Source: a plasmid. From it: DNA of 64,000 bases. The translations under genes and the position numbers were made by a program. Of the stretch, positions 4,541-42,535 are shown one piece after another (the first letter of the stretch is position 1; the number at the start of each line of letters is the position of its first letter). The stretch lies in the sequence record NZ_CP156668.1; one strand, written 5' to 3'. The notes under the pieces were generated by a model, which worked only from the letters and a program-made list of their open reading frames with translations, had not been told where the DNA came from and did not search any database.

Positions 4541-4730
<190 letters not shown>

Positions 4731-4839
4731 AATTGGTATTTGAATTCACGGCCACTTAAATGTCTTAATTGGCATACACCAATCAAGATCTTCTTGCTTA
4801 ATTTACGTCATTAAATTCGTTCAAGTTATTTCTTGCAAT

Positions 4840-5496: not shown

Positions 5497-5517
5497 TTTG
5501 TCTCCCTGCTAAAATAA

Positions 5518-21503: not shown

Positions 21504-24041
21504 GTGGAAATTTTGAATGCAATAGAAAAACTTTATGCGGTTATCGCACAACAGTTTCCTAACGGTCGTATTACTACGAACCAAGCAGCTCATGCAATTG
21601 GGCTGACACGTGGTGTGACTAGTAGTTATCTATCAAAATTAGAAAAACAAGGGCAATTGGAAAAATCTGGAAGCAGACCAGTATATTGGCAGATTAAACA
21701 TAAAAAGAATGCTTTTGATAACTTAATAGGCTCATATGGCAGTTTAAAATCCAATATTAAAAATGCTATAGAAGCCATTGTCTACCCTAGCCATGGTTTA
21801 CCGGTTCTTATTACAGGTAGTCATGGCACTGGTAAACTATTATTTGCTCACGCCATTTACAATGAAGCCATCAGACGTAAAATCTTGACTGAAAAGGCTA
21901 TTTTTAAATTGATCGATTGTGAAGATTATCGAAATCAGTTAAACGTGCTGAAAAGAGAATTGAAAACTATTTCTACCCAGTCTAACAAAATCAAATCTGA
22001 AGATAGTTACGTGTGTATTAAAAATCTACAGACATTTAAGCCTGTAGATCAGCAAGGTTTATTTACTTATATTATGCAACAACCCGATAGTACCGTTCGT
22101 TATATTTTTTCAACGACTAATACAAACCTCAGTCTTCAAGATAACATATATTTAAAAAATGCTATGGTGAGAATTGACTTATTGGACCTTGATAGCAAGC
22201 CTTTTCATGAGAAAGTTGCTTTTATTATTATGTTCCTACAACAACAAGCCGATCAAATTAACAAGAAGATTTTAATTTCACCATCTGAACTTATTAAGCT
22301 GGCCAAGCTTAGACAAGCTGATAACATCAGAGGCCTGCAAAATACAATTAAACTACTGGTAGCGTCAGCCTACGCCCGATCCTTAAAAATGAATCAGTTA
22401 GTTATTGGTTTAGATGTAAATCATGCTATCTCCATCATACCTAACCAGAATTTATTACAAACTAGCATAACTAGGGTAGTCAACAATATCCTACAGCTTA
22501 ATTCCAACTCACACACTTTGCTCACGCAACTCACAGATTCACTTAACCGTGGCGAACCTATCACAGAGCAAAATTTTTATTTGCTTAAGGTACTTAAGCA
22601 AGTCAGCATTATTACTAACGAACCGGCATTGCTTAGCTTAGCACCGACGCTTAAAGCAGCCGCCCAGAAGTATATTACTACTCCCTATGGCGTTAATTTT
22701 CCACAAAATAGTAATTTTTGGAATCAGATTGCTTTATCTTCCATCTATGCTAATCTTTGTAGCATCAACCTACCAGATGATGAACAATCCTCCAAACTGC
22801 AAGAAGCTTTAAGAAATCATTACCCGAGAAGCTACTATTTGTTCAAAAAATTGCTGACCAAAATTGAACCTCAATACGTAAAAAATAGTTATTATTACCT
22901 TCCGTTTTTCATCTTGATGGCATCAAGCACAGATAAAATTGAATCTGTGCATTATAACGCTATTTTATTAGCACATGGAGAACAAACTGCTTCTAGCATT
23001 CAACAAATAGCAAATACATTATGTGGTAATTACTTTTTTGAAGCCTTTAATATGCCAATAGATATTTCCTTAGGAGAAATTAATACTTATGTCTGTAATT
23101 ATTTGTCTGAGCAAGGTGATTCTGCAAAAGGAAATATTGTTCTATTTGATATGGGCTCACTACACCAAATGTTTAAAGAAATTAAGAAAGTTTCTGATCA
23201 AGAACTTCTAGTTGTTAATAATATAACAACTGCAATGGCGCTTGATATTGGTCTTCAGATTCAACGCAACGAACCATTTCTTGCTATTGCAGAAGCAAGC
23301 CAGAAATACGGCGCTACTACTGATTCTCAATACTATGAGGGATTATCGAATAAACAAAATATTATTGTTTCTTGCATGTCAGGAGTCGGTTTATCCAAGG
23401 AACTTAAAAAGCTTATTCAAACAACTCTGTCATCATCCTTAGAAATAATTGCTCTAGATTATAAGCAATTACACAATTTACTAATCAACCAAGATCATCA
23501 ATTTTTTTCAAAGACAAAATTAATCTTAACCACAACCGATATCAATCATGATTTAGATATTGCTATTATAAATGTTTATAGCATTTTTGATAAAAACATT
23601 TCTTTAAAATTACAATCCATATTGTTATCAATTGGTGAAAGTTATGAAGCCTGCAAATTATTGATTGATCGCTTACTACAGTTTCTTTCAATTGAGGGCA
23701 TTCGTGGACGTTTACAAATCTTGAACCCCAATATTGTAATTAAGGATAGTCAAGACATTGTTACTCATTATGAAAATTTCTATGATGTTAAATTTAATCC
23801 TAGATTAAAGCTCAATTTATATATGCATCTCTCGCTAATGATCGAACGAATGATTATGAATCATACAAGCTCCGATAATTTGATAAATAAAATGACATTG
23901 ACTAGCCAAGAAAGAGATTTTTTCACATTGTCCAACGGAATTTTTAAACCTATAGAAAAAAAATTCAATATTGAAATCCAACCATATGAAATTGAATTAA
24001 TTTATCAATTGATCAAAGATTTCATAAAAAACAAAAGTTAA
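21504..24041 (+). CDS. fosR: LevR/FosR-like sigma-54-dependent transcriptional activator with PRD and EIIA/EIIB-like regulatory domains
   Basis: N-terminal HTH, then an AAA+ sigma-54-interaction domain with Walker A (ITGSHGTGKLLFAHAIY) and downstream PRD-like regions. Divergent from the PTS operon. The true start may be the TTG at 21513 (AAGGGG 7 nt upstream). Confidence 0.75.
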   Translation: MEILNAIEKLYAVIAQQFPNGRITTNQAAHAIGLTRGVTSSYLSKLEKQGQLEKSGSRPVYWQIKHKKNAFDNLIGSYGSLKSNIKNAIEAIVYPSHGLPVLITGSHGTGKLLFAHAIYNEAIRRKILTEKAIFKLIDCEDYRNQLNVLKRELKTISTQSNKIKSEDSYVCIKNLQTFKPVDQQGLFTYIMQQPDSTVRYIFSTTNTNLSLQDNIYLKNAMVRIDLLDLDSKPFHEKVAFIIMFLQQQADQINKKILISPSELIKLAKLRQADNIRGLQNTIKLLVASAYARSLKMNQLVIGLDVNHAISIIPNQNLLQTSITRVVNNILQLNSNSHTLLTQLTDSLNRGEPITEQNFYLLKVLKQVSIITNEPALLSLAPTLKAAAQKYITTPYGVNFPQNSNFWNQIALSSIYANLCSINLPDDEQSSKLQEALRNHYPRSYYLFKKLLTKIEPQYVKNSYYYLPFFILMASSTDKIESVHYNAILLAHGEQTASSIQQIANTLCGNYFFEAFNMPIDISLGEINTYVCNYLSEQGDSAKGNIVLFDMGSLHQMFKEIKKVSDQELLVVNNITTAMALDIGLQIQRNEPFLAIAEASQKYGATTDSQYYEGLSNKQNIIVSCMSGVGLSKELKKLIQTTLSSSLEIIALDYKQLHNLLINQDHQFFSKTKLILTTTDINHDLDIAIINVYSIFDKNISLKLQSILLSIGESYEACKLLIDRLLQFLSIEGIRGRLQILNPNIVIKDSQDIVTHYENFYDVKFNPRLKLNLYMHLSLMIERMIMNHTSSDNLINKMTLTSQERDFFTLSNGIFKPIEKKFNIEIQPYEIELIYQLIKDFIKNKS

Positions 24042-24451
24042 AACACGATCTACCCTTTTACCAAAATGAGCAGAGAGACTACTATGATATATTGATACTA
24101 TATTTAATCTATTTCGTTTAGTATCCTTTACTATATATAATAAGGAGGCCTCTAATGCTAGCTTTTCTGTCAACATCATTCATACCATCCAATGATAAGA
24201 TGTGGTCACGAGTTGGCATAAATAAAAATCAACAATTCCCGCCATTGGCAATAGATTTAGGATGACGTTCCCTTAATTTTGAATGGTGTCCATGGTCTTA
24301 GTTAAATCTTTCTTGTTTCTGCCCAATTGATTCAATTCAGTAACTATGACAACACCACCTTAACAAATCATAATTTGGATAATAGTATGTTCCATTTGAA
24401 AGCTAAGCCTTATAATTAGCATAGGGTTAATAGCTCTAATCAAAATACCCA

Positions 24452-26400: not shown

Positions 26401-28437
26401 TCATTTTTCAGTCTTACTTAAGCTACCTCGATGATAAATTTTCTTTTGGATTAAGTATTGATCCTGATATTGAGTAATAAATAACGGAGAACTTTCTTCT
26501 ATGACATTGCTAAACTCCAAACCATACCATGAAATAGGTGAGGCCGTAATTTTCTGCAAATAGATGCGCCCGCCAATCAATCTTCTATCTAACGAGCTTA
26601 ACTGATCATTGGCAATTAAATCTGCTGGTTGTTCCTTTATAATAACAAACTTAAAGTCGCCGACTTTCCGTTGTCGCTCTGTTGAATACGTGGGTATTTG
26701 TGGTTCTAAAATACCTTGTTCCACTAGATGATTTACAATTTGATGTAAATAGACACTAACGGATTGAGATTTCTTAAACCCTAAGTACAATTGAACGTTA
26801 ACAACATTATGCGTCTCAAGTAAATCAACTGTATAATTACTTTCATAAGGTGCATTGGTTTCATTGACTGTAACAAACCAATAAACTTTAGCTCTTTTAG
26901 GTTGTCTGTCGAGAATAGAATACATGGTACTACGCTTAATTTGGTAATCACCCTTAATTTTAGTCATATACACTAAGTTAGTCGTGAACAAAGGTACTGT
27001 ATTGTCTGCGCTTAATTTAGAGAGTTGATCACGATAGTCAAGAAGTGAAACATACTCGCTTTCTTTCTCATAATGTTCTCTTCGTTTATTTCCAAAGTAC
27101 CAAAGCCACATAATATAAAGAATGCCCAACATGATTGTTAACGTAACATAACCGCCATGAATAAACTTAACCAAACTTGAAATTAGAAAGATTAACTCAA
27201 TAAAACCAAAAAACAAGGCAATTATAAGTGCTGTTCCCTTAGCCAGGTGTTTCTTTAAGAATTCATGCAAAAGCACAGTAGTCATAAGCATGGTAATAGT
27301 GATCGCTAAACCATACGCGGCCTCCATTTTTTGTGAACTACCAAAGAACCAGACTGCACTAATTGTTATTATACATAGTATCCAGTTAACAGTTGCAATA
27401 TAAATTTGATTTTTTATATTACTTGGATGTCTAATAACCATTCTAGGTAAAAATTTTAAGCCAATTGCTTCATCGGCTAAAGTGTAAGAACCCGTAATCA
27501 ACGCTTGAGAGGCAATAATTGCAGCGAGTGTGGCTAGCACAATGCCAACTAGGCGCCAAGTTCCGGGGAGCATTTCATAAAAGGGATTTAAGTTCGATAA
27601 GTTCCTGTAAGCAGTGTCACCTGCATGTCTAATTATCCAAGCCCCCTGACCTAAGTAATTTAAAAATAGGGTGCTATATACTAGTGGCCAGGTTACATAA
27701 ATATTCTTCTTGCCAACGTGACCCATATCGGAATATAAAGCCTCTGCTCCTGTGGTTGCCAAAAAGATACTTCCAAGTATAAAGATTCCCACTTTGTTAA
27801 CTGGACTGAATAGTATCCTAATTGCATAATAAGGAGAAATAGCCTTCAATATCATTGGATAATTGATTAGATTAACGATTCCAAAGACAGCCAAAAAACC
27901 AAACCATAAAATCATCACTGGTCCAAAGGATTTCCCAATCACACCTGTTCCAAAACGTTGAATCATAAATAATACGAGTAGAACAACTGTTGTGATAATC
28001 AAGACGTTATGTTGAGAATTACTAAACACCACAGGGCCAAGGTGTTGTTTTTTTAATCCCTCAATGGCTGAGGTCACGGTTACTGCAGGTGTTAATGTTC
28101 CATCGGCCAAAATAGCTGCCCCACCAATCAAAGCTGGCCAAATTAACCATTTTGCATTTTTTCGAACTAAGGCATATAAAGCAAAAATACCGCCTTCATG
28201 CTTGTTGTCGGCTTGCATTGCAATGACAACATACTTCAACGTTGTAATAATCATTAATGTCCAAAATATCAAAGAAACTGACCCAATGACGTATTCTGGA
28301 GAAATATTTCCCATTTTACCGGCGTCACCAATCAATGCATTCATAACATACAATGGTGAAGTGCCAATATCACCGTACACAATTCCTAAAGTAACAAGTG
28401 CCCCCGCAAAAGAAACACGTTCTAGTTGCTTATTCAT
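26401..28437 (-). CDS. kup: KUP/HAK/KT-family potassium uptake protein
   Basis: N-terminal ...[15 protein letters not shown]... signature, 12 TM helices, plus a ~230-aa C-terminal cytoplasmic domain. Confidence 0.9.
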
Positions 28438-28602
28438 ATTTGCTTGCCCCCAACGCTAATTATTGAAATATAGCACTGCAAAATAGTAAGCCTAAACACT
28501 AAGAAAAGCAACTATGCCATATACATCATAATGAAATCACTTTAAAGAAGTTCATAATTTACGATATACTGATTGAAACCATAAATTATGGGTCTTCTAT
28601 TC

Positions 28603-29304
28603 TTAACTATCTAGTTGAACCATCTGATAACCGACTCCAATGTGTGTTTTAATATACTGATTCTGAGTATTAACTTCAATCTTTTTTCGCAAAGTTGCAA
28701 TGGTCACTCGAAGAGAAGATGTATCTTCAACCGATTCTGTCCCCCAGACCTCTTTCAACAGATAGCGGTGTGTCAACACGCGGGAAGTGTTTTCAGCAAG
28801 AATAATCAAAACCTTATATTCGATTGGTGTTAAATGGATTTCATTTTGGTTTACTTTGACCGTTTGTGAATCAAAGTTGATAGTCAATTCTCCATTACAA
28901 TAATTATTAATATTGGTTTTTCCGTTGTTATATATTATGTTAGTCCTTCTCAAGGAAACACGAATTCTAGCCAGTAATTCATCAATAGAAAAGGGTTTTG
29001 TTAAATAATCATCAGCACCCAAATCTAGAGCCTGCACTTTGTCGGCGTCCTCATCACGCGCTGAAATAACAATAATAGGTATATTATTGTTGGCAGCTCG
29101 TATTTGCTTAATAATGTCCATCCCATCCATATCGGGTAACATTAGATCAAGTAAAAGTACATCTGGTTGAAAAATTGGAATAAATTGGAGCGTTTTATTG
29201 CCATTTCTAGCTATGCCATACTTATAATCTGCGGATCTTAATGTCATTTGTATTAATCGAGCTACTTCTGGATCATCTTCGACAATCAAAATTCTATTTT
29301 TCAT
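28603..29304 (-). CDS. kdpE: OmpR-family response regulator KdpE
   Basis: REC domain (D in LLLDLMLPDMDG) plus a winged-helix output domain. Overlaps kdpD by 11 nt. Confidence 0.85.
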   Translation of the reverse strand: MKNRILIVEDDPEVARLIQMTLRSADYKYGIARNGNKTLQFIPIFQPDVLLLDLMLPDMDGMDIIKQIRAANNNIPIIVISARDEDADKVQALDLGADDYLTKPFSIDELLARIRVSLRRTNIIYNNGKTNINNYCNGELTINFDSQTVKVNQNEIHLTPIEYKVLIILAENTSRVLTHRYLLKEVWGTESVEDTSSLRVTIATLRKKIEVNTQNQYIKTHIGVGYQMVQLDS

Positions 29305-31978
29305 TTTTTTTGCTCCAAATAGGTAAAGTAAAGTAAAAACATACGCCGTTATTTAAATTTTTAGCCCAAATATTACCATCATAAGCTTCAATAATAGATT
29401 TACACAATGATAAGCCAATTCCAAGCCCTCTTTGAGCCCTTAATGGTTGCTTTTGTTTGCCAGTGTAAAACAGTCCAAATAGGTGAGCCAGATCACCATT
29501 AGTTAATTTTGGTCCGTTATTTGAAATCTCAAATTGGACTTGATTGGTATTCTTTTGAAAAATTCTAATCGAAATTTTGGTTTTTTCCGGTGTGTGTTGA
29601 ATAGCATTGTTAACTATATTAATAATGACTTGGGTAATTAAGTGTGCGTCAGCCATGACCATTAATAATGGATCAGACAAGTTAACGGTAATCTTATGAT
29701 CTTCAAATCCTGGGCTAAGATGTTGCAAAGATTCTTGAATAATATCATCAACTAACTCTGGAGAATGACGTACTTGAAGACTACTCTCTAAACGAGTCAT
29801 TGCCAATAGATTCTCCACTAGACTAATTAACCATGAAGAGTCATTAAATATTGATTCATATAATGTATACTTTTCAACATCACTAAGCTTATTTCCTTCT
29901 CGTTTCAATATATCTGCACTACCAGAAATATTTGTTAACGGTGTTCGTAAATCATGGGAGATTCCTCGTAGCAAGTTAGCCCTGAGTTTTTCCTGATGCG
30001 ATTTAATTTCAGCTTTTCTTTTTTCATTTAGGATTCTCATCCTTGATAAGGCTTGACCACATTCATCCAATATCGAAATAATTAAATTACGATCAAATAT
30101 TTCCAAAGATCGTTTTGAATTTATTGCTAAGCCTATAACCGCAACAACTGATGAAGGGGAATTTCCAAAAATAGGTAAATATAAACACTTTGCTTGTGGT
30201 AAAGTATTAGTAGTTAATCCAGCTTCTTGACCATTCTTGAATGCCCAGGTTGCAATGGCTTTCTCGTTATCACTGGAAAACTCATAAAAAGAGCTCTGGC
30301 TTTGGTTTAACAGATAAATTTTAGGTTGCAGTAACTTAGAATCCTGGCATTCATAAAAGACCATTGTAGCACTATAAATTTTTTGTAGTTGTTGAACAGT
30401 CGTGTCAATAATATCGGTTGATAATTTGGCTTGTTGCAATTTACGAATAGTTTCCAACAGCACCTCTGTTTGGTAGACACGGTTAGAGTTATATTGAACT
30501 TGGTGCTTCAATTTTAGTGTCCAATAATTACTGATTATTGAAACTAGTAGCATTAAAAAAAATGTCAACAAGTAAACTGGACTACTACTAAGAGAAAAAT
30601 AGGGTTTGGTAAAAAATAAATTGAAACTAATTACTGCTAAAAAAGCTGATAAGAATCCATATACTTGATCTTTTAGGTTAATTGCGCAGAGCATGATCCC
30701 TAACATATAAACCAAAACGACATTTACCAATGGTACTTGTGCAAATATTAATAGTTTTCCAACCACTGTGCTTCCCAAAATAATACTTGAAATCATTAGC
30801 ATATTTTTAGCCATGCGCTTAGAGCCAGACTTACTAAGTGAACCTTTAAAATGGGTTAAAAATGTACCATTTAAATGTTGGACTTGATTCAAATTAGTTT
30901 TAGCACTATTAATTACATACTCATCAACTTCTGGTAACAGATATCCTATTTGATACACAAGTGTAGATCGTGTTTGCCATATTTTTTTATAAGGACTAGC
31001 CCCAAGTACAATTTTGGTTACGCTGCTTTCTTTGGCATACTCTGTAATTTGCAGAGCTGGGTTCTCACCCTGCAGTTTAATAACCTTTGCACCTAGTTGA
31101 TGGGCAAGGCTAATGTTATTATTTAAGTTTTCCTCCCATTTATTAAACTGATTGTTCTTAACATAAACCGCAATGAAGTCACTATTAAAAGCTTGAGCCA
31201 TTTGTGCAGCAGAACGAATGACACGTTCATTACTCTTAGATCCGGATAAACAGACTAGTAGCCGATCAGTACCTACCTTTGAGTTGGTAGCCAATCTTAA
31301 AGTCATTTTCCTCAATGCAAGTTCTCTTAACGTAGTAAGATTTTCAGATTTAAAAAAATTAGCTAATGCTTGCCTTATATGATTTCTAGCATATATTTTT
31401 CCAATTTTAAGTCTATTGATCAGATCATTGGGTTCGATATCAATTAACTTGACCTGATTTGCCATATCAAATATATAATCTGGTACTCGTTCTTGAATAT
31501 CAACGTTTAATTGTTCAAAAATTATATCGTGCAGGCTTTCTAGATGTTGAACATTTAGCGTTGTATACACATTGATACCAGCAGTAAGTAATTCCTGAAT
31601 GTCTTGATAACGTTTCAAATGGCGACTTTTTTTCGTATTTGTATGTGCTAACTCATCAACTAAAATTGTCTGTGGATGTCGTTCCAGTGCACCATCGAGA
31701 TTGAATTCTTGAAGATACATTCCCTTATAGGATTCTTTTTTTACAGGGATTGATTCTAACCCCCTAGCAAGATTGCGTGTATCTGCCCTGCCATGATCCT
31801 CAAGGTATCCAATAATGACATCCTGGCCCTCCTGCTTCAAGTCCTGTGCTTCTGCTAGCATAGAATAAGTTTTGCCAACACCAGCGGCATAACCAAAGAA
31901 AATCTTTAATTTCCCCCTGCCTGAAGTTTCAAGATTTGCATCTTTTAAGTACCTACTTGCACGTTCATTTTGATTCAT
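29294..31978 (-). CDS. kdpD: Sensor histidine kinase KdpD
   Basis: N-terminal KdpD domain with P-loop GYAAGVGKT, Usp domain, four TM helices, GAF, HisKA (HDLRTPL) and HATPase_c. Confidence 0.9.
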   Translation of the reverse strand: MNQNERASRYLKDANLETSGRGKLKIFFGYAAGVGKTYSMLAEAQDLKQEGQDVIIGYLEDHGRADTRNLARGLESIPVKKESYKGMYLQEFNLDGALERHPQTILVDELAHTNTKKSRHLKRYQDIQELLTAGINVYTTLNVQHLESLHDIIFEQLNVDIQERVPDYIFDMANQVKLIDIEPNDLINRLKIGKIYARNHIRQALANFFKSENLTTLRELALRKMTLRLATNSKVGTDRLLVCLSGSKSNERVIRSAAQMAQAFNSDFIAVYVKNNQFNKWEENLNNNISLAHQLGAKVIKLQGENPALQITEYAKESSVTKIVLGASPYKKIWQTRSTLVYQIGYLLPEVDEYVINSAKTNLNQVQHLNGTFLTHFKGSLSKSGSKRMAKNMLMISSIILGSTVVGKLLIFAQVPLVNVVLVYMLGIMLCAINLKDQVYGFLSAFLAVISFNLFFTKPYFSLSSSPVYLLTFFLMLLVSIISNYWTLKLKHQVQYNSNRVYQTEVLLETIRKLQQAKLSTDIIDTTVQQLQKIYSATMVFYECQDSKLLQPKIYLLNQSQSSFYEFSSDNEKAIATWAFKNGQEAGLTTNTLPQAKCLYLPIFGNSPSSVVAVIGLAINSKRSLEIFDRNLIISILDECGQALSRMRILNEKRKAEIKSHQEKLRANLLRGISHDLRTPLTNISGSADILKREGNKLSDVEKYTLYESIFNDSSWLISLVENLLAMTRLESSLQVRHSPELVDDIIQESLQHLSPGFEDHKITVNLSDPLLMVMADAHLITQVIINIVNNAIQHTPEKTKISIRIFQKNTNQVQFEISNNGPKLTNGDLAHLFGLFYTGKQKQPLRAQRGLGIGLSLCKSIIEAYDGNIWAKNLNNGVCFYFTLPIWSKKNEK

Positions 31979-32194
31979 CTAGTTATCCCTCCAAATAGAA
32001 TACAAGAATATCCTTGGTAAGTATACTATCGTTCTAACTAAATTTACCCAAAAATAAAGTCTTGTCTTTTATAATCTTCAAATCAAGATCTTTATAGGCT
32101 CTATTACATATGACACAAAACCCCTAAATGATTATCACATATGGTAATCATTTAGGGGCTTAACCCGCGACTTATCTCAGCTAAGCTTCAAAAG

Positions 32195-32794
32195 TTATTT
32201 TGATAGTTTATCCAAGGCCAGATTAGTTTCTAGCACGTTAACCCGAGGTTCACCAAGAATTCCCAGAGTGCGAGTTTTGGTATTTTGGTCAATCACTCGT
32301 TGAATTTTTTGAACACTGACATGCCGAGCCTTAGCAATTCTCTTAACCTGATATTTAGCAGCAGTTGGTGATATTTCTGGATCTAAGCCACTTCCTGAAT
32401 TAGTTACTAGGTCAATGGGAACATGTCGATAAGTGGCATTAGGATTCAATCTTTTTATTGTCTTTTCTTTATCAATAATCTCCTTTTGATAACTTTTATC
32501 GTTAGGGCTCATTTGTGAGGCCACAGAGTACATAATATTTTTATTGTTTTTTTGTCCAGTTATATCGCCAACAGTAATATCCATCTGTCTACCCCACAGG
32601 TATTTTTTGCTTGTGAATGGTTGTGCAATTAGTGCTGATCCCCTTACTGTTTGATCAGATCTAACTAAACTGCCATTTGCTTGTGAGGTAAAAAAGGTTT
32701 GCCCAATTGCACTAACAATTAAGGTATAGATACCACAAATAATCGTTATGACAATTACTGCCAAAATTGACTTACCTAATGTCTTAACTACCAT
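32195..32794 (-). CDS. kdpC: K+-transporting ATPase subunit C
   Basis: Single N-terminal TM helix and a conserved KdpC C-terminal region (GSGLDPEISP). Confidence 0.85.
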   Translation of the reverse strand: MVVKTLGKSILAVIVITIICGIYTLIVSAIGQTFFTSQANGSLVRSDQTVRGSALIAQPFTSKKYLWGRQMDITVGDITGQKNNKNIMYSVASQMSPNDKSYQKEIIDKEKTIKRLNPNATYRHVPIDLVTNSGSGLDPEISPTAAKYQVKRIAKARHVSVQKIQRVIDQNTKTRTLGILGEPRVNVLETNLALDKLSK

Positions 32795-32812
32795 TATTGT
32801 CTTTCTCCCTTC

Positions 32813-34894
32813 TCATAGAATCTGTAGTATGAGTGCAATGATCAAGTCGATCAACTTAATTCCAATGAATGGAACAACTATCCCACCAAGCCCATAAACT
32901 AGCAAATTATGCCGCAGTAACTGACTAGCTGGAACTTCTCGGTAACGTACTCCCTTGAGTGCCAGGGGAATTAAGGCGACAATAATTAGTGCGTTAAAAA
33001 TCAATGCTGACAGGATTGCACTTGTTGGACTATACAAATGCATAATGTTAAGCACATTTAACTTGGGATATAATCCTACAAACATAGCCGGAATGATAGC
33101 AAAATACTTAGCAATGTCGTTTGCAATTGAAAAAGTGGTTAAGCTTCCTCGAGTCATTAATAATTGTTTACCAATTTGGACAATTTTAATTAATTTAGTT
33201 GGTGAAGAATCTAGATCAACCATATTACCAGCCTCTTTTGCAGCCTGTGTACCCGTGTTCATAGCTACAGCAACGTCGGCCTGAGCCAAGGCAGGAGCGT
33301 CATTAGTTCCATCGCCAGTCATGGCAACTAAATGTCCCTTATTTTGATATTCACGAATGGTTTTCATTTTACTTTCTGGAGTAGCCTGAGATAGAAAACT
33401 ATCAACCCCAGCTTCAGCAGCAATGGCAGCAGCGGTTACTGGATTATCGCCAGTAATCATGATTGTCTTTATGCCCATCTTCCTTAGATCAGCAAATTTT
33501 TCCTTAACGCCGGGTTTTATGATATCTTTCAAGTAGATAACACCAAGAATAACACCATTCTTGCATACTACTAAAGGTGTCCCTCCCTGTTCAGCAATTC
33601 TCTTAACTGCTATTTGGCATTCTTCGCTGTATTTATTTTTTTTTGTCAGGACATATTGTTTGATATTCTCCGAAGCACCTTTACGAATTTCATCTCCAGC
33701 AAAATTAACACCACTCATTTTAGTTTGTGCTGAAAATGGAATAAACTTAGCCTGATTTGCTTCTAAGTTCTGTTCTCTAAGGCTATACTTTTCTTTTGCT
33801 AATACAACAATTGATCTTCCTTCCGGCGTCTCATCAGCTAAGGATGAAAGCTGTGCCGCAATTGCTAATTCTTTTTCTGAATGGCCATCGACTGGAATAA
33901 ATGCTGAGGCACGTCGATTGCCTAATGTTATTGTCCCAGTTTTGTCCAGGAGTAATACATCGGTATCGCCAGCAGCCTCAATGGCCCGACCACTCATTGC
34001 TAAAACATTAGCTTGATTCAATCTACTCATGCCAGCAATACCGATAGCTGAAAGAAGTGCTCCAATGGTTGTCGGGGCTAAACAAACCAGTAATGCAATT
34101 AACCATACAATAGACATTGGATTTCTCATATCAAGTATCTGAGATGATAACTGAGAATACGTGTATAATGCCGCCACTACCAACACAAATATGATAGACA
34201 ATGCAACTAAAAAAATTTCTAGTGCAATTTCATTAGGCGTTTTTTTACGGTTAGCACCTTCTACCATTCCAATCATTTTGTCCAAAAAACTAGCACCTTG
34301 TTCTTGTGTTACCTTGATGACCAAATGATCTGATAAAACAGTAGTACCACCGGTAACAGCAGAGCGATCTCCGCCAGCTTCTCGTATTACCGGCGCAGAT
34401 TCACCGGTAATTGCACTCTCGTCAACAGAAGCAGCTCCTTCGACAACTTCACCATCTGCTGCAATGGTTTCCCCAGCTTCAGCAAGGAATAGATCACCTT
34501 TATTTAAGTTTTCTCCACTAACTTTTTCAATATTTGATAAATCGCCAACTTTATTTAACCTTTTTGCCATTACTGCACGTTTTGATTTTTTCAACTCTGC
34601 CGCTTGAGCTTTACCGCGCCCTTCAGCGACAGCCTCTGAAAAGTTTGCAAACAGGCAAGTAATCCAAAGAATTACAGCTACTGTAAAGATAAAACCACTA
34701 CTTACAATTCTGTCTGAGATGCCAAAAAGCGATAAAATAAATAAGATAGTTGTTGCAATTGCTGATACATAAACTAGAAACATCACTGGATTTTTAATTT
34801 GTAGGTTAGGCTTTAACTTAAGAAAAGTTTCTTTAAGTGCCGCTCCTAACATTTTTCGCTTAAACATTTGATTTTTCTCTATTTTTTCATTCAT
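32813..34894 (-). CDS. kdpB: K+-transporting P-type ATPase subunit B
   Basis: P-type motifs DKTGTIT, TGDN and [11 protein letters not shown]. Start at MNEKIEK (RBS AAGGTGGG 7 nt upstream). Confidence 0.9.
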
Positions 34895-34942
34895 AGTCAG
34901 ACCCACCTTACTAATTTTAGAAACGCATAATGTAAAATCATA

Positions 34943-36715
34943 TTAATGTGTCAAAAAGTCCGCTATTGGTCCTAATGATAGTGCTGGAAAGAAACTAAGC
35001 ACGCCAATGATTAATACAACGATTATTAACATAAAAACAAAGGTTGGACTTGTAGTTGATAATGTTCCCGAACTACTAGCAACAATTTTATGCTGTCCCA
35101 TTTTACCAGCAATCGCCATTATAGCGATAATAGGAAGAAAACGAGAAATGATCATCGCAACAGCTAATAAAACATTGAAAATAATGGTATTACCATTGAA
35201 CCCTCCAAAGCTGGAACCATTATTTGCCCCTGCTGATGAAAAAGCATATAAAAATTCAGAGAATCCATGTGCTCCACTATTGCTAAGACTAGTTAAAGTA
35301 CTCTTTAACATTGCTGGAATAGCGCTGCAAGTTAAAATTGCAATTGGCGTTGATAGGCAAGCGATAACAGCCATACGCATTTCGTAAGGCCCAATTTTTT
35401 TACCTAAATATTCTGGTGTACGTCCTACCATTAGCCCAGCAATAAAAACTGTTAGGATGATAAATCCAAGCATGCCGTACAATCCAGATCCTACACCACC
35501 AAAAACAACCTCGCCTAATTGCATTAAAGCCATGGGCATTAATCCGCCCAGAGAACTAAAACTATCTAATGTTGCATTCACTGCGCCTGTAGATGTTGCA
35601 GTAGTAACAATACTCCAAACAGCTGATCCAGGAATACCAATTCTAGTTTCTTTGCCTTCCATAGCCAAATTACCAATATGAGCTAAAGTGGTCCCATGTT
35701 GTTCAACAATTCCTTCAAATATTAACGCAACTACAAACATAATTGCCATAGCTGAGAAGATTGCCCAACCTTCCTTACGCCGCTTTAAAGATTCACCAAA
35801 GCTAAAACATAGCGCCATGGGCAGAAGAAGCATTGCCGTTGTTTCAATAAAGTTTGTAAAAGGTGTTGGATTTTCATATGGATGGGCAGAGTTAGCACCT
35901 AAGACCCCCCCACCATTAGTCCCCAATAACTTAATTGATACCTGGGAAGCTTGTGGGAATAACGGTAAGGTTTCTTTAGTTATAATTTTTGCCCCATCGA
36001 TTTTGTGATTTTTAATCCTAACTGTATTTTTTTTGACGTTAATTTCAGCCCCATGAATCGCCTGGTTATGTTTATCAACGGCAACAGGTTGTACCAAGGT
36101 AGCAGTTTTATAACCACCAGTTGTTTGAGGAACACCACCTGCCATGAGCATAATAGACATAAACAAACTAAGCGGGATTAAAAGATATAGAAAGATCCTG
36201 GTCAAGTCTCGCCAAAAGTTTCCAATTGCTTTTGCTTCTGTACGTTGGATACCTCTAATTAATGCAAAAAGAACCGCAATTCCAACAGCCGCAGAGGCAA
36301 AGTTTTGAACAGTTAAACCAATCGTCTGAGAAAAATTAGAAAGAGCCATTTCCCCAGAATATGATTGCCAATTAGTGTTGGTTACAAAACTAACAGCAGT
36401 ATTAAACGCTAATGACCAAGAAAGCCCCGAAAAATGTTCTGGATTCCCAGGTAAATAATTTTGGAATTTCAAAATACTAAACAAAACTAAAAAACTAACT
36501 AAAGAAAACATTAAAATACTTAGTAAGTAAGTTTTCCAACTCATCTCGCGATTAGACACACGAAAAAATTTATATATTTTGTTTTCAATTGGTCGGATAA
36601 TTCTGCTCATAAAATTGTTCTGATCATTAATAATATGGCTGATATACTTGCCTAATGGAATGGCTAATAATAATGGAACAATGATATATGGTAAATATTG
36701 AGCCCATGTTGGCAT
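34943..36715 (-). CDS. kdpA: K+-transporting ATPase subunit A
   Basis: 10-TM KdpA with selectivity-filter-like TNGGG and NNGS segments. 590 aa. Confidence 0.9.
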   Translation of the reverse strand: MPTWAQYLPYIIVPLLLAIPLGKYISHIINDQNNFMSRIIRPIENKIYKFFRVSNREMSWKTYLLSILMFSLVSFLVLFSILKFQNYLPGNPEHFSGLSWSLAFNTAVSFVTNTNWQSYSGEMALSNFSQTIGLTVQNFASAAVGIAVLFALIRGIQRTEAKAIGNFWRDLTRIFLYLLIPLSLFMSIMLMAGGVPQTTGGYKTATLVQPVAVDKHNQAIHGAEINVKKNTVRIKNHKIDGAKIITKETLPLFPQASQVSIKLLGTNGGGVLGANSAHPYENPTPFTNFIETTAMLLLPMALCFSFGESLKRRKEGWAIFSAMAIMFVVALIFEGIVEQHGTTLAHIGNLAMEGKETRIGIPGSAVWSIVTTATSTGAVNATLDSFSSLGGLMPMALMQLGEVVFGGVGSGLYGMLGFIILTVFIAGLMVGRTPEYLGKKIGPYEMRMAVIACLSTPIAILTCSAIPAMLKSTLTSLSNSGAHGFSEFLYAFSSAGANNGSSFGGFNGNTIIFNVLLAVAMIISRFLPIIAIMAIAGKMGQHKIVASSSGTLSTTSPTFVFMLIIVVLIIGVLSFFPALSLGPIADFLTH

Positions 36716-36796
36716 ACTATGATTCTCCTTTCACTAGAACATAAATTAGATAAGCTAATAAAAAGATTGTTAAGATCGTTCCTAAGACCAAAACCA
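36716..36796 (-). CDS. kdpF: KdpF-like 26-aa single-TM peptide
   Basis: MVLVLGTILTIFLLAYLIYVLVKGES* lies immediately upstream of kdpA (its TAG stop abuts the kdpA ATG), with RBS GGAAGTGAG. It is not in the ORF track because it is under 60 aa. Confidence 0.55.
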
Positions 36797-36829
36797 TTTG
36801 TCTCACTTCCAATTAATTTTTTAATTTAA

Positions 36830-37108
36830 TCAAGGGTGCTCCATCACGTTAATGCGTTGTTTCCAAAATTTTCTAACACTAATAGGAACTTTGTCTGAGA
36901 ATCCGTAGTCAAATTTAAGATGCTGAGCAGTATCGAAAAAATAAAAAATTGTAACATCTGCTATGAAAAGGTCTCCTGAAGTACTTTGAATGTAGCCTCC
37001 CATCTTTTTTTTAATATCATTATCAATTAAACAAATTATTTTTTCTCGACTATACTGGTCCGAATAATCTTTGTAATAATAATTATCAATCATTTTGAAC
37101 ATCTCCAA
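36830..37108 (-). CDS. Hypothetical 92-aa protein (Tyr/Asp-rich) at the edge of the AT-rich island
   Basis: ORF MEMFKMIDNYYYKDYSDQYSREKII.... It has no recognisable domain. Its GC is about 28%, far below the flanking kdp genes. Confidence 0.35.
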   Translation of the reverse strand: MEMFKMIDNYYYKDYSDQYSREKIICLIDNDIKKKMGGYIQSTSGDLFIADVTIFYFFDTAQHLKFDYGFSDKVPISVRKFWKQRINVMEHP

Positions 37109-37286
37109 AACATATTCAAATTAACTAAAGATATAGTATATGAAAAGGTGTTAAAATGGTGTTAATATTTAAAATCTCATGTTAATATTTTGTTAAAAGC
37201 ATATATTTAATTTGTCTAATCTCATAATAGAAATTTTGACCGATAGCAAATCAATGGTTAATCAGACTAGCAACAATAAAAAAGGT

Positions 37287-37325
37287 AGGAGAGAATTATA
37301 CGCCATTCTTTCCTACCTTTTATTA
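37287..37325. terminator. Hairpin terminator between the cyclase operon and the 92-aa gene
   Basis: aaaaaaggtaggagagaattatacgccattctttcctaccttttatt. Confidence 0.55.
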
Positions 37326-37602
37326 GCTCTATACTATTATGATAATGATTGCTGCCTACACAATTAAACCACTGTCATTCATAAGTATATTTCCAACTTA
37401 TGTTTATTAACCTATCCATAACAGTTTATCGAAGAATTTCACTGCCAATCTAAACGTTGCTCTTGGGAAATCAAGAGAGCGTTACGAATCTAGTCTCAAC
37501 GTTTCCTTTTTTAACAGTCCTAATGCACGTCTATAACTCCTAGTGTAGTGTAAAAGTGCAAATGAATATTAGGGTATACCCTAGTGGCCGTTTGGGGTTA
37601 AT

Positions 37603-38433
37603 TTAAAAATTACAATCATTTTGCAATTCTTTGAGTCTATCGTTAAATGGAGTTCTCACAAAGTTTCCCCCATAGAAGCATTTTCCTTCGTCAGTTGGAA
37701 ATTGTTTAGCTAAAAAATCGGCAAACGTTTGATTATCAGGATTAGCAATGTACCTTTTACAATTGTCTTTAACGTTTTGATCGGTCAAAGTAAAATATGG
37801 ATAATTTTCATTATTGGCTTTATCACATAGGTGTGCAGCGGTATTTACGTTGTCACCAAGAAAGATAGGCTTATTTATACCGCTACCTTTATCTCCAGCT
37901 TGTATAACCAGTGCTTCGCCCGTAGCAATACCCACGCCCGCTTTAATGTCAATTCTTCGTTTATAGTGCTTAGAAAAGAGATTATTTATTATTCCTAATA
38001 GAGGATTGAACATAGAGGCTGATTCTAAAGCTTCTATAACATCAGATCTGTCTTTATATTCACCTGATTTATCTTTATTTTCAACAAATATTGCTGAAAC
38101 ACAGTCACCAACAATATTTATTTCCTTACAACACTCATGACTTCTTAAAACTGCAATTATTTCGCTAATATAGGATCTATAAAATCTGGCTATTATTCTT
38201 CTGTCATATCCCTCTTTTGTAATCAGTTTAGAAGAGTTTCGTATATCAATAAAAAAAGCGGTATTTTTGACGTAAGCACCATTAGTGTAACTTAATGCGT
38301 TATCTAAACTAGGCAAGTAATCCAGATGATCAAATTTATTTGTATCTGTTAGAATCTCTTTTATTACATCTTCAGCTGTACTTAGATTAAAAGACTTGAA
38401 ATTAATTGTACTATTTCCCATTTTATTTTCCAT
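37603..38433 (-). CDS. Class III nucleotidyl cyclase-domain protein (adenylate/guanylate-cyclase-like). Candidate signal-producing enzyme of a Pycsar-like module
   Basis: Motifs AFFIDIRNSSKL (FxDIxGFT-like metal Asp), INIVGDCVSAIF (KxIGDxxMA-like second Asp) and GIATGEALVIQAGD...IFLGDNVNTAAHL (GDTVNxAAR-like, with His replacing Arg). Start at MENKMG (38433) or MGNST (38421). The upstream ORF Met at 38511 lies inside the preceding gene and has no RBS. Confidence 0.55.
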   Translation of the reverse strand: MENKMGNSTINFKSFNLSTAEDVIKEILTDTNKFDHLDYLPSLDNALSYTNGAYVKNTAFFIDIRNSSKLITKEGYDRRIIARFYRSYISEIIAVLRSHECCKEINIVGDCVSAIFVENKDKSGEYKDRSDVIEALESASMFNPLLGIINNLFSKHYKRRIDIKAGVGIATGEALVIQAGDKGSGINKPIFLGDNVNTAAHLCDKANNENYPYFTLTDQNVKDNCKRYIANPDNQTFADFLAKQFPTDEGKCFYGGNFVRTPFNDRLKELQNDCNF

Positions 38434-38444
38434 GTCCTTCCATA

Positions 38445-38987
38445 TTAATTGATAGATAGTCCAATAGATGCTATCAGTGTGACTAGAAAAATTGTCCCAA
38501 AGCCTAAACATATAAATTTGATACCAATATTGCAGTTTTTCATTTTTGTATCAGCAATATTGGCATTAACAAATATTTGATTAACTAGGTCATCATTGGG
38601 ATTAAAATCTTTGCAGAAGTAATTTTTCATTTCGTTTAGCCCATTTTGAGATATATCGCCAAAAAAAATGTGGGATTGTTGATGGGAAATGTTTTTCAAT
38701 CTAGGTATAAGGGTAAAAAATAAATAGAATCCACCAATAAAGACTAATATTAATCCAAATACTAGCAAAAAAATAAGTACCGTTAAAAAAATTTTATCTT
38801 TGATAAAAAGATAGTGGATACAATTTACTACGACACCATAGAAGCGAGAGTTTATCAATAAAGTAAATAACACCCCAATTGCTGATAATAAGACTGAAGC
38901 TTTTGTATCTGATTTTTGTATCCAATCTAATTGCTTGTCTAATAGATATTGTAAATACTTGGTTTTTTCACAATTATTATCGTTCAT
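38445..38987 (-). CDS. Small 3-4 TM membrane protein encoded immediately upstream of, and translationally coupled to, the cyclase. Candidate membrane effector
   Basis: 180 aa. TM segments VLLSAIGVLFTLLINSRFYGVVV, IFLTVLIFLLVFGLILVFIGGFYLFFTLI and IKFICLGFGTIFLVTLIASIGLSI, with a ~60-aa soluble loop. No cNMP-binding, TIR or enzymatic motif seen. Its stop is 11 nt before the cyclase ATG. Confidence 0.45.
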   Translation of the reverse strand: MNDNNCEKTKYLQYLLDKQLDWIQKSDTKASVLLSAIGVLFTLLINSRFYGVVVNCIHYLFIKDKIFLTVLIFLLVFGLILVFIGGFYLFFTLIPRLKNISHQQSHIFFGDISQNGLNEMKNYFCKDFNPNDDLVNQIFVNANIADTKMKNCNIGIKFICLGFGTIFLVTLIASIGLSIN

Positions 38988-39120
38988 TGCCTAGTCCATC
39001 TCTCTTCTTGTATAATTGAGCTTGTAGAAAAGTTAAGACGGTGGCTATTTCCAATCGGAGGTGGTGCTTATGGTGTTAAACCTTTAAAGCCCATAAATCC
39101 TAACGAAAGGAGTAGCCTAA

Positions 39121-39225
39121 GTGTCCGTTGCGGACGCTTTACAATTAATGCTGGCTTTCGGTACCTTTATCGTAGCCTTAATTGCATTAATTGTTGAGCT
39201 GATCAAAAGCCAGCAAAAAAAATAA
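39121..39225 (+). CDS. Hol-Tox family small hydrophobic peptide (putative holin-like toxin, type I toxin-like), 34 aa
   Basis: VSVADALQLMLAFGTFIVALIALIVELIKSQQKK* matches the lactobacillal Hol-Tox consensus (xSVADALQLMLAFGxFIVALxALIVExIK). RBS AAAGGAG 9 nt before GTG. Absent from the ORF track (under 60 aa). Confidence 0.7.
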   Translation: MSVADALQLMLAFGTFIVALIALIVELIKSQQKK

Positions 39226-39465
39226 TCCGTCTTAGCTTTGGCGAGCAGATGGATTATTTTTGATCTAATCTATTAAGTTTGCCACCGTCTTAAACGGTTC
39301 TACATGGGAAGTCCTGTTCTAGCAGGGCTTCCTTTTTCTGTTTACATTATAGCATGACTATAATGGACTTTCGACTATTTTTAATCAACTTTCTGCCAGT
39401 TCTTAGGGAACACATGTTTGCTTTATATGCTACAATACAGGTAAAAGCTAACGGAAGTGATCTAA

Positions 39466-40766
39466 ATGTTTTTTGATGATGAACCGCATGGCGTGTTCTT
39501 CTTAATCGATAACAAGTCCTTTTATGCTAGTTGCGAAGCCGTTGCCCGGGGCCTTAATCCCTTAAAAGTCCCGTTAGTGGTCCTGAGCGAAGCTGAAAAT
39601 ACTAATGGCGGGCTCATTTTAGCCACGTCACCCGAAGCTAAGCACTTATTTCATCTTAAAGCCAACGTCTCCCGTAAACGTGACTTACCCAATGACCCCA
39701 GTTGTGGGTCGTGCCACCGCGCATGAACCTTTATATTCAACGTAATTTGCAGATCAATCAGATCTTTCATCAATTTACTACTGAAAAAGAGGTTTGGCCG
39801 TATTCAATTGATGAAAGCATTCTTGATATGACCCATACTTGGCGGCTGTTTGGCAATTCCGTTCGCGAAGTGGCACGCTTGATTCAAAAGACAGTTCGGC
39901 AAAAGCTAGGCTTGTATACCACCGTGGGAATTGGTGACAATCCGGTGCAAGCTAAATTAGCCTTAGACCTTTACGCTAAACATAATCATGAATTGATCGG
40001 TGAAATCCATTACGAAACTGTGCCGGATAAAATTTGGTCAATTACTGAATTAACGGACGTTTGGGGGATTGGCCCCCGTATGGCGAAACGTTTGAACCGC
40101 CTTCACATTCACAATATGTATGAGCTAGCCCATACCAACCCTTATTTACTCAAACAGCAGCTTGGCGTCATTGGTAGCCAGTTATTTGCTATAGCCTGGG
40201 GAATTGATCGCGCACAAGTCACGGAACCAACTAAGGTTAAAGGAGCTAGCCTGGGGAATTCGCAAGTGCTGCCACGGGACTATTTTAACCAAGCCGAAAT
40301 TGAAACGGTCATTAAAGAAATTGGGGAACAGGTGGCGGCTCGGCTTCGGCACCACCATAAACTGGCAGGTTGTCTATCGCTAAGCATTGGGTTTTCCTAT
40401 GCCGCGGCAGAAGCAGATGGCCGCGGTGGCTTTAACCAGGCTTTAAAAATTGAACCGACTAACGACAATCAAGTTTTGACGCAACAATTATTGTGGTTAT
40501 TCCGTCAGAATTGGGACGGTCAAGCTGTCCGGAATATTGGCGTTTATAGCAGTAAACTAAATGCCAATTCCGGCCAACAACTTAATTTATTTGAAACCCC
40601 GCGCAACCAAATTCGCCGTAGCCGGTTAAACCAAGTGATTGATGAAATTCACCGGCAATTTGGGTTCACCAAACTAGTTTACGCGACCAGTTTATTAAAG
40701 GGAGGCACCGCTATCAAGCGGGCTTCACTAGTGGGCGGACATAATGGAGGGAATAGCTATGAATAG
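39466..40766 (+). pseudogene. umuC: Y-family DNA polymerase (UmuC/ImpB/MucB-like, plasmid-type) interrupted by a frameshift in a C-run near 39700
   Basis: N-terminus MFFDDEPHGVFFLIDNKSFYASCE... (catalytic Asp region) in one frame, the remainder ...LWVVPPRMNLYIQRNL... through the little-finger domain in another. The expected RDLPNDPQLWVVPPRM junction is restored by adding one C to the run gaCCCCag. Confidence 0.75.
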
Positions 40767-41079
40767 CGATATCGAGATTATTAAGGGGCGGTTAACCCGA
40801 TTGTTTAAGCGGCGTCCCCAAACCCGCTATTGGTTAATGTTGACTAATGACACCTACGATCAGACCTATAATCTGTTTTTTAACAGTCAACGGGCCAACG
40901 AGCGCTTGCAATCCGTTCCCTTACATAAATTAGCTCACTATGATTTAGCTGGTTTAGAAAAATTACTAAAAGCATTACGACAAGATATAAAGCTAACGAT
41001 CGAATTTGTCGGCTTTACTGGGGAACGGTGGCCGGCAAGTCAAAAGCTGATTCAACGAAAGCGGGTGCCCCTTGAATAA
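40759..41079 (+). CDS. Hypothetical protein (~107 aa) between umuC and the YolD-like gene
   Basis: MNSDIEIIKGRLTRLFKRRPQ.... Its start overlaps the umuC stop. No recognisable domain. Confidence 0.4.
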   Translation: MNSDIEIIKGRLTRLFKRRPQTRYWLMLTNDTYDQTYNLFFNSQRANERLQSVPLHKLAHYDLAGLEKLLKALRQDIKLTIEFVGFTGERWPASQKLIQRKRVPLE

Positions 41080-41458
41080 TCAAGAATTTGATTTAGCCAC
41101 GGTTAAGCATTTTTTTGAACACGATTACCATGACCGGGGCATGATGAAATGGCAGGGCTTCTATTTATCCGATCATACTGCCGCTTTAAACCAACAGAAC
41201 CAGCAGTTGAATGCAGTATACGTTCCACGACCGCAACAATCCTTAGCAACAATTACCGAGGTATTGGCGGACGCATATCAGCGTCAGCAACCAGTGACCA
41301 TTCAATTAAAAACGGTTGACCAAAACAACCGCCATTTACCAGATATCACCACCTTGATCCATGGCTACAATGCCAATGATATTGTGATTGACGCTGATCG
41401 GTTTATCCCACTACAAGAAATTCGCAATGTGGCCTTTAAAAATACGGAGAAGCTATAA
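41072..41458 (+). CDS. YolD-like protein (proposed UmuD-equivalent accessory of Gram-positive UmuC homologs)
   Basis: About 128 aa with a DRGMMKW...LSDHT segment resembling the DRGxxKWxxAMMLPEH signature of YolD-like proteins. It is immediately downstream of a umuC homolog, as is typical. Confidence 0.5.
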   Translation: MNNQEFDLATVKHFFEHDYHDRGMMKWQGFYLSDHTAALNQQNQQLNAVYVPRPQQSLATITEVLADAYQRQQPVTIQLKTVDQNNRHLPDITTLIHGYNANDIVIDADRFIPLQEIRNVAFKNTEKL

Positions 41459-41480
41459 AATTCTAGCTCTCCGTATTTTT
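41441..41480. terminator. Hairpin terminator ending the umuC-yolD unit (overlaps the last codons of the YolD-like gene)
   Basis: aatacggagaagctataaaattctagctctccgtattttt. Confidence 0.6.
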
Positions 41481-41575: not shown

Positions 41576-42535
41576 TTAATTGATAACGTTTTTCAGATCT
41601 CCTGATAAATATGCTTTTATATTATCAACAGTCATATGCAACAACCGTTCTCTTGTCTCATATGGTGCCCAAGCAATATGTGGGGTAATATAACAATTTT
41701 TGGCCTGTAATAATGGGCTATCACTAGCAATGGGCTCCCCTTTAACAACATCAGTGGCGTAGGCATAAATTTTGCCTTCATCCAAGGCATTCTTAATGTC
41801 CGCTTCATTAGCCAATTTGCCTCGGGCCGTATTCAATATAATAACCCCAGTTTTCATTTTGGCAATCGTATCATTATTAATTAAATCTATTGTTTCTGGT
41901 GTTTGGATCACATGCAGACTAAGCACATCAGATTGCATTAATAGTTCATCAAATGAAACCTGCTGAATCCATGATTCGGTAATTTTCTTAGGACGATGAT
42001 TATAGAAAATAACTTTCATAGAAAAAGCGTGTCCTATTTTAGCAACTTTTTGCGCAATATGGCCATAACCGATTAGTCCTAAAGTTTTCCCTTTTAATTC
42101 TAATAGCGGTTTTTCCCAAAAAGTAAAATCAGGAGCCTGTGCCCACCGGTTTTCATGAACAAGCTGATTATGCAATCCAACTTGGCTAGTCACTTCTAAT
42201 AATAACGAGAAAGTAAATTGTGCCACTGCGTCACTTGCATATGTGGGAATGTTAGTCACCACAACCTTGTTCTGGTGTGCGCTCTCAATATCAACGACAT
42301 CATAACCGGTTCCCATGATTCCGATATACTTCAATCGTGATGTTTTGCTAATCACTTCATGATCTAGCGGTGTTTTGTGTGTAATGACGATATCAGCATA
42401 TTTAATTCGTTTTATGATTTCAGCGTTATCGTTAACTGGGGTACGATCATATAAAGTGCAGTCGCCTAATTCTTGCAAGCTTTTCCAATTTAAATCTTTG
42501 TTTAGTTCATATCCATCTAAAAGAACAATTTTCAT
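41576..42535 (-). CDS. D-isomer-specific 2-hydroxyacid dehydrogenase (D-lactate / glycerate dehydrogenase family)
   Basis: NAD-binding GLIGYGHIAQKVA, a catalytic Arg/Glu/His triad region (ILNTARG...H), about 320 aa. Confidence 0.8.
   Translation of the reverse strand: MKIVLLDGYELNKDLNWKSLQELGDCTLYDRTPVNDNAEIIKRIKYADIVITHKTPLDHEVISKTSRLKYIGIMGTGYDVVDIESAHQNKVVVTNIPTYASDAVAQFTFSLLLEVTSQVGLHNQLVHENRWAQAPDFTFWEKPLLELKGKTLGLIGYGHIAQKVAKIGHAFSMKVIFYNHRPKKITESWIQQVSFDELLMQSDVLSLHVIQTPETIDLINNDTIAKMKTGVIILNTARGKLANEADIKNALDEGKIYAYATDVVKGEPIASDSPLLQAKNCYITPHIAWAPYETRERLLHMTVDNIKAYLSGDLKNVIN

Follow-up and report, generated by a model that had tools for sequence, protein, structure and literature searches.

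A stretch of 64,000 nucleotides (nt) from the plasmid record NZ_CP156668.1, referred to below as the window, harbours at positions 37603-38987 of its minus strand a gene for a small membrane protein followed by a gene for a nucleotidyl cyclase. An initial annotation of this DNA compared the pair with the cyclase and membrane-effector pairs (PycC plus PycTM) of Pycsar systems, and at the same time held it to be an unusual, diverged or undescribed variant. The comparison was borne out by full-length matches of both proteins to the PADLOC PycC and PycTM models, by a match of the membrane protein to Pfam family PF18967 above its cutoff and by the RefSeq name of the effector. The claim of novelty was not, as the short effector, its upstream position and a His in place of a canonical Arg are all normal for the family. 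The pair is a canonical and already annotated PycTM-PycC system, a textbook Pycsar recognized by PADLOC-type tools and by RefSeq, and there is no case for it as a new system.

The two genes and their products

The coordinates of the two genes and of the features around them are given in Table 1. The distance of 11 nt between the stop codon of the 180-residue protein and the cyclase gene, reported in the initial annotation, agrees with the open reading frame (ORF) coordinates, and the RefSeq coordinates for the pair in the Lactiplantibacillus plantarum plasmid pST-III (NC_014558.2) are those found in the window. In the ORF list the longest frame for the cyclase starts at 38511 and overlaps the effector gene. 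A second allele, 86 % identical, has its annotated start at the following ATG (38421 in window coordinates), so that the spacer measures either 11 or 23 nt, depending on the start chosen. This tight spacing implies that both genes are on one transcript. A promoter scan did no better than expected from shuffled sequence and showed no clear promoter inside the segment occupied by the pair. The hairpin behind the cyclase gene is suggestive at most, since the number of such sites was not above shuffled expectation.

The plasmid origin proposed for the DNA was confirmed. The pair region is 99.9 % identical to pST-III, at least nine further near-identical plasmids carry it, and both window proteins are 100 % identical to their RefSeq entries, which are named 'Pycsar system effector family protein' (WP_033098910.1) and 'adenylate/guanylate cyclase domain-containing protein' (WP_013356299.1). 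In pST-III the pair is bordered by the kdp operon on one side and by a holin-like toxin gene and a Y-family polymerase gene on the other. The guanine-plus-cytosine (GC) content of the pair is 30.5 % (effector gene 28.0 %, cyclase gene 32.0 %), the window average being 39.0 %, and the pair ranks among the lowest 1.1 % of equally long stretches of the window; the low-GC tract runs on leftwards of the pair to about 36400. The low GC content noted earlier thus stands, while the figures given with it (about 28 % in a plasmid of about 42 %) slightly overstated the contrast.

The cyclase is a class III cyclase of the Pycsar type with an intact catalytic core. PADLOC PycC model PDLC02368 matched it over profile positions 2-232 of 234 (E-value 6.7e-70, 233 bits). 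The cyclase itself has no match in Pfam, PF00211 included, or in NCBIfam, which is not read as a missing fold because homologues, family profile and structure model all show the cyclase fold. PF00211 is carried by most of 69 cyclase homologues, from 59 % identity downwards. A family profile built from 42 of these 69 homologues was searched against the PDB and found uridylate cyclase 8JSZ (3.3e-13), 7R65 (3e-11) and 6YII (3.3e-10) at the top, followed by photoactivated and other adenylyl cyclases and cytidylate cyclase 8JSF (3.3e-5); a search with the single sequence returned 6YII alone, weakly. The class III fold expected in the initial annotation was found by structure prediction as well. The AlphaFold2 model (predicted local distance difference test score, pLDDT, 91.1; predicted template modelling score 0.89) matched class III cyclases in Foldseek with probability 1.00, and the best matches were the cyclic UMP (cUMP) synthases 7R65 (7.8e-14) and 8JSZ (1.1e-13), above adenylyl and guanylyl cyclases. 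The grouping with PycC is based on the PADLOC model and on the family-profile and fold rankings. The Lactobacillaceae subgroup of the cyclase is characterized by an insertion of about 10 residues (~117-128) after the strand at 111-116 and lies below PF00211 detection.

Both metal-binding Asp motifs that had been noticed are present, and their residues D63 (FIDIR) and D110 (IVGDC) are invariant in 77 of 77 and 78 of 78 relatives, respectively. The ribose-binding N197 is invariant or nearly so across 78 relatives from different species. The motif G193-D-N-V-N197-T-A-A-H201 does have His at the canonical Arg position, as described before, but this is not the departure it was taken for. Among relatives this position holds Lys in 30, His in 28, Asn in 18 and Arg in none, and Lys aligns with it in three solved PycC enzymes, so that His201 is a family trait rather than an oddity.

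The membrane protein belongs to the PycTM effector family. It matches Pfam PF18967 (1.1e-8, 35.9 bits; gathering cutoff 27.2) and, over profile positions 2-154 of 160, PADLOC PycTM model PDLC02364 (6.6e-30, 103 bits); the PADLOC PycTM models PDLC02363-02365, with 154-165 positions, cover nearly the whole effector. An exhaustive homologue search (1.84 billion representatives, E up to 0.001) yielded relatives in 463 clusters, and among the matches listed almost all have 155-215 amino acids and align end to end. PF18967 was found in 64 of 64 sampled relatives. The cyclic-nucleotide-binding domain PF00027 was found neither in the effector (E up to 1) nor in any of these 64 (E up to 0.01); in the literature consulted, a cyclic-nucleotide-binding domain is ascribed to PycTIR and not to PycTM (PMC11224242). 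The earlier argument that the protein is too short to contain such a domain fails, because shortness defines the PycTM effector family, for which size and domain content were taken from scans of its members and from the lengths of the Pfam and PADLOC models.

The AlphaFold2 model of the effector is all-helical (pLDDT 91.9) and agrees with the three to four transmembrane (TM) segments assigned before, showing three long hydrophobic helices and one short helix. It begins with a helix at 3-46, the second half of which is TM1 (~29-46), and the short helix at 48-63. These are followed by TM2 (~65-93), a loop, a helix at 109-125 and a helix at 130-179, of which the second half is TM3 (~153-179). Three membrane passes put the N-terminal helix and the insert between TM2 and TM3 (~94-152) on the same side, which is predicted to be the cytosolic one. 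All conserved residues are located on this side, close to the membrane: K29 and K148 are invariant and D27, S105, F109 and Q137 near-invariant in the alignment, forming D-x-K, S-x3-F and Q...K motifs. The region formed by D27/K29, S105/F109 and Q137/K148 is proposed as a putative ligand site. No experimentally named protein came up when homologues were searched with the PycTM alignment, and the mode of membrane damage by PycTM has been reported as not elucidated (PMC10402079).

The effector is also matched, along almost its entire length, by PADLOC models of CBASS 2TM effectors (E-values down to 5.8e-14), which relates it to a wide class of small membrane effectors gated by nucleotides. A CBASS reading of the pair was rejected, as there is no CD-NTase. 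A SLATT identity was likewise rejected, with no Pfam SLATT match at E up to 1, and weak, short Cas2 matches in PADLOC and Pfam at residues ~98-144 were taken as chance.

Gene pairing and the plasmid cargo slot

Relatives of the cyclase were scanned in one genome per species, giving 219 relatives, and 80 loci were fetched; the pairing counts refer to 78 loci that encode a complete cyclase, that of the window among them. Among the hosts are Bacillota, Actinomycetota, Bacteroidota, Pseudomonadota, Cyanobacteria and Archaea. The co-occurrence check suggested in the initial annotation revealed a PycTM-family ORF somewhere in the locus in 76 of the 78. The ORF lies at most 250 nt from the cyclase in 66 loci. 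It is adjacent on the same strand in 61 loci, with the effector upstream in 42 and downstream in 19, and adjacent but divergent in 5. Effector-first is the commoner order in this cyclase clade, and the upstream membrane partner is no departure as had been supposed. A TM-then-cyclase pair that protects E. coli has been called 'a typical Pycsar system' (PMC13069673). Five loci (L014, L015, L020, L068 and L079, at ~4000-5500) have about 750 nt with one extra gene between cyclase and PycTM; a second match to the cyclase profile in several of these suggests three-gene variants with two cyclases.

The pair exactly fills a slot in the plasmid backbone. Flank homology to three sibling Lactobacillaceae plasmids (L082, L084 and L085) ends at 37591-37594 and resumes at 38999-39009; these plasmids keep both flanks and carry unrelated cargo of low GC content (31-32 %) between them. 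In other plasmids a second Pycsar allele (~85 % nucleotide identity) is found at the same position beside the toxin gene. Such swapping of low-GC cargo, which in one sibling is the defence candidate PDC-S15, supports the reading of the pair as mobile defence cargo, although the plasmid has no classical multi-system defence island. The pair is best explained as cargo that a mobilizable L. plantarum plasmid acquired horizontally. Within this slot of exact boundaries, beside a type I toxin/RatA locus, the two sibling cargos without a known family (274 and 258 amino acids) are reasonable candidates for abortive-infection genes, possibly new ones. A Pycsar on plasmids of food-grade L. plantarum could bear on the phage resistance of starter and probiotic strains.

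Table 1 Features at the PycTM-PycC locus and alternative cargo of the same slot (window positions, except where a sibling plasmid, L082, L084 or L085, is named)
Feature	Position	Strand	Description	Basis
pycTM	38445..38987	-	180-amino-acid Pycsar membrane effector	PF18967, PADLOC PycTM, RefSeq name, AlphaFold2 model
inter-gene spacer	38434..38444	-	11 nt, Shine-Dalgarno-like GGAAGGA	sequence; RefSeq spacing in pST-III
pycC	37603..38433	-	276-amino-acid single-domain class III cyclase, ATG 38433	PADLOC PycC, AlphaFold2, Foldseek
weak terminator-like hairpin	37570..37583	-	~20 nt past cyclase stop, in flank common to sibling plasmids	pattern scan
cargo slot	37592..39002	.	filled exactly by the pair	flank homology to L082, L084, L085
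alternative cargo	L082 3893-4880		FRG-domain protein	PADLOC defence candidate PDC-S15, 1.6e-24
alternative cargo	L084 2399-3247		274-amino-acid hypothetical protein, hydrophobic N-terminus	no Pfam/PADLOC match
alternative cargo	L085 2400-3413		258-amino-acid hypothetical protein, hydrophobic N-terminus	no Pfam/PADLOC match
rli28-like toxin mRNA	39001-39187	+		Rfam, 65.8 bits
holin-like toxin coding sequence	~39121-39225	+	type I toxin-antitoxin locus adjoining the slot	
RatA antitoxin RNA	39262-39349	-		Rfam, 86 bits vs gathering score 49

Proposed mechanism and alternative explanations

The pair very probably functions as a two-gene Pycsar abortive-infection system, PycC plus PycTM, carried as low-GC mobile cargo. 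In the proposed mechanism pycTM and pycC would be co-transcribed with the effector first, and PycC would be a homodimeric class III cyclase that stays inactive until phage infection. On infection it would cyclize a nucleoside triphosphate to a 3',5'-cyclic mononucleotide, most likely cUMP, with D63 and D110 coordinating two metal ions. PycTM would bind this nucleotide, probably at a membrane-adjacent cytosolic bundle made up of the N-terminal helix (D27/K29), the S105-x3-F109 loop and the helix at 130-152 (Q137/K148). It would then disturb membrane integrity, so that the infected cell is killed or arrested before phage release.

The assignment of a product depends on the cyclase clade. Matched against the PADLOC models, fragments from the solved enzymes of clades A, B and D fell to 02366, 02367 and 02369, and model 02370 (340 positions) fits the 342-residue clade E enzyme by length. 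Elimination leaves model 02368, that of the window cyclase, as a single-domain cluster of its own, probably clade C. TM effectors are used by clades C and E (PMC13069673), while cUMP is reported as the product of clades A-D and cyclic CMP (cCMP) as that of clade E alone (PMC11224242). As the single-domain cluster is probably clade C, cUMP may be put forward, if weakly, as the most likely product of the window cyclase.

Several observations weigh against the reading as a Pycsar abortive-infection system. The clade C label rests on elimination and not on a phylogeny with a reference set. At the positions that correspond to the published specificity residues the window cyclase has F61/V108/C111/S113, while the solved enzymes have Y50/D94/R97 (BcPycC) and F60/K104/F109 (AnPycC) (PMC11224242); the pocket is unlike that of any solved PycC and the product can therefore not be transferred by residue identity. 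A fold search and a profile search of the PDB gave no significant match for PycTM, for which there is neither a solved structure nor a recognizable ligand-binding fold. No experiment on this pair, or on any Lactobacillaceae Pycsar, was found in the literature, and no classical multi-system defence island surrounds the pair on the plasmid. Finally, according to the abstract of a 2026 preprint, some Pycsar-related cyclases make cyclic GMP (cGMP) and work with TIR or TM effectors (bioRxiv 10.64898/2026.08.12.744502).

The latter enzymes, together with pocket residues that differ from those of every solved PycC, would suit a 'Pucsar'-like purine offshoot, in which the same architecture is kept and the cyclase makes cGMP or another non-pyrimidine cyclic nucleotide that gates the TM effector. 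This is quite unlikely, as the PADLOC PycC models, derived from Pycsar data, match at 233 bits and the closest structures are cUMP synthases. In class III cyclases the purine-selecting positions are occupied by Lys/Asp in adenylyl cyclases and by Glu/Cys in guanylyl cyclases. In the window cyclase these canonical positions, which we take to be N106 and I190 after placing them by hand from textbook motifs, hold neither combination. A more general proposal, improbable but less so, is that the product of cyclases of the 02368 type would be neither cUMP nor cCMP but another nucleotide, which PycTM would sense through an undescribed compact cytosolic helical bundle; with F61/V108/C111/S113 and His, Lys or Asn at the Arg position, the family is unlike all four structurally characterised PycC clades. 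If true, both the product and the new sensing bundle would be properties of the whole large family, not of the window locus.

The remaining explanations concern the effector and the role of the pair. A toxic membrane protein and a cyclase might together stabilize the plasmid or exclude rival elements. The pair is indeed plasmid-borne, has a type I toxin/RatA antitoxin locus as its immediate neighbour and occupies a slot with exchangeable cargo, and one sibling plasmid has a broken copy. Such a maintenance or competition module is nevertheless very unlikely: homologous pairs are located on chromosomes of many phyla and not on plasmids alone, nothing antitoxin-like is encoded in the pair, and the literature defines the family by its anti-phage function (PMC11224242, PMC13069673). 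The novel variant favoured in the initial annotation, a diverged Pycsar with a sensor-less compact effector, draws on the shortness of the effector, on its lack of a recognizable nucleotide-binding domain and on the absence of a solved structure resembling it. It is scarcely credible and was judged already refuted, since the first two of these properties define the established PycTM family: the PADLOC profiles run end to end, PF18967 occurs in every sampled relative and PF00027 in none, the relatives listed are almost all of similar length, and RefSeq already names the protein a Pycsar effector. Housekeeping cyclic-nucleotide signalling with no role in defence has a negligible probability. The generic RefSeq name of the cyclase would allow it, but the pair is mobile cargo of low GC content in whose place sibling plasmids have other genes, its distribution across phyla, archaea included, is patchy, purine-specifying residues are absent and pairing with PycTM is strict.

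Related systems and further observations on the plasmid

The closest known systems are those Pycsar systems in which a single-domain PycC is joined by a PycTM of the PF18967 type (PDLC02368 with PDLC02363-02365; probably 'clade C' of Tal et al. 2021), to whose models both window proteins are full-length matches. They share the two-gene operon, the intact Asp/Asp/Asn set, an effector of about 180 residues with three TM helices and a pairing that is kept across phyla. No structural difference was seen; the Lactobacillaceae insertion at ~117-128 and the position below PF00211 detection set the window cyclase apart. AnPycC/AnPycTM of Anabaena (clade D, 8JSZ), a cUMP-producing and phage-protective system, has the structure that gave the best profile match and second-best fold match, and it too has a TM effector (PMC11224242). 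AnPycC, however, ends in a Cys3His zinc ribbon and has the pocket F60/K104/F109 (PMC11224242), against F61/V108/S113 in the window family; the alignment of this family shows no conserved C-terminal Cys/His set, and AnPycC maps to another PADLOC model, 02369. The cUMP synthase BcPycC of Burkholderia cepacia (clade B, 7R65) was the top Foldseek match (7.8e-14, TM-score 0.82 on the target) and is also a single cyclase domain. It differs in its pocket, Y50/D94/R97 against F61/V108/C111, and its partner BcPycTIR is an NADase consisting of a cyclic-nucleotide-binding domain and a TIR domain (PMC11224242), whereas the window effector is a membrane protein.

The 'clade F' Pycsar Liu-DS6 of E. coli, for which phage protection was shown experimentally, also has its TM effector first (PMC13069673); it is likened to the window pair by description. 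Clade F is distant from clades A-E and often shares one operon with type IV Thoeris (PMC13069673), and no Thoeris genes are found at the window pair. The 2TM effectors of CBASS resemble the window effector in that their PADLOC models match it and in being small nucleotide-gated effectors without a classical sensor domain. These model scores are much weaker than those of the PycTM models, and CBASS effectors are partners of CD-NTase oligonucleotide cyclases, while the window effector is paired with a class III mononucleotide cyclase.

Some further observations concern the surrounding plasmid. The RatA RNA is transcribed toward the Pycsar operon. On the minus strand a single good promoter-like site was seen, at 39374-39346, presumably the RatA promoter; read-through from it into the Pycsar cargo is conceivable. 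In plasmid p12-1 (NZ_CP046594.1, locus L087), which is otherwise 99.6 % identical, indels interrupt the pair: matches to the cyclase fall into three pieces, and a 136-residue fragment is the sole entry in the PLSDB gene table, from which pseudogenes are omitted. This reflects either inactivation or an assembly error. Between kdpA and the slot lies a 92-residue ORF (36830-37108, minus strand; RefSeq hypothetical WP_033098911.1, annotated as 264 nt), without a family match, in a very AT-rich tract (36400-37600, 25-30 % GC). Sibling plasmids share this ORF along with the left flank, so it lies outside the cargo.

The window and pST-III are collinear over 27700-41480 only (99.7 %). Beyond 41480 the window has a D-2-hydroxyacid dehydrogenase gene (41576-42535) where pST-III has a DUF3800 gene, and the mobilisation region of the window matches pST-III at 80-90 % only. 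This limited collinearity and the diverged mobilisation region indicate that the source of the window is a mosaic relative of pST-III. Compared to pST-III, one G of a GG run is missing from the Y-family DNA polymerase gene at about 39700. This 1-nt deletion splits the ORF into 39466-39726 and 39702-40766 and represents either a frameshift or an error of sequencing. A second low-GC patch (~30 %), at 22700-24400, lies within the ORF of an 845-residue LevR-like regulator (21504-24041, plus strand) with sigma-54 interaction, EIIA-man and PRD domains.

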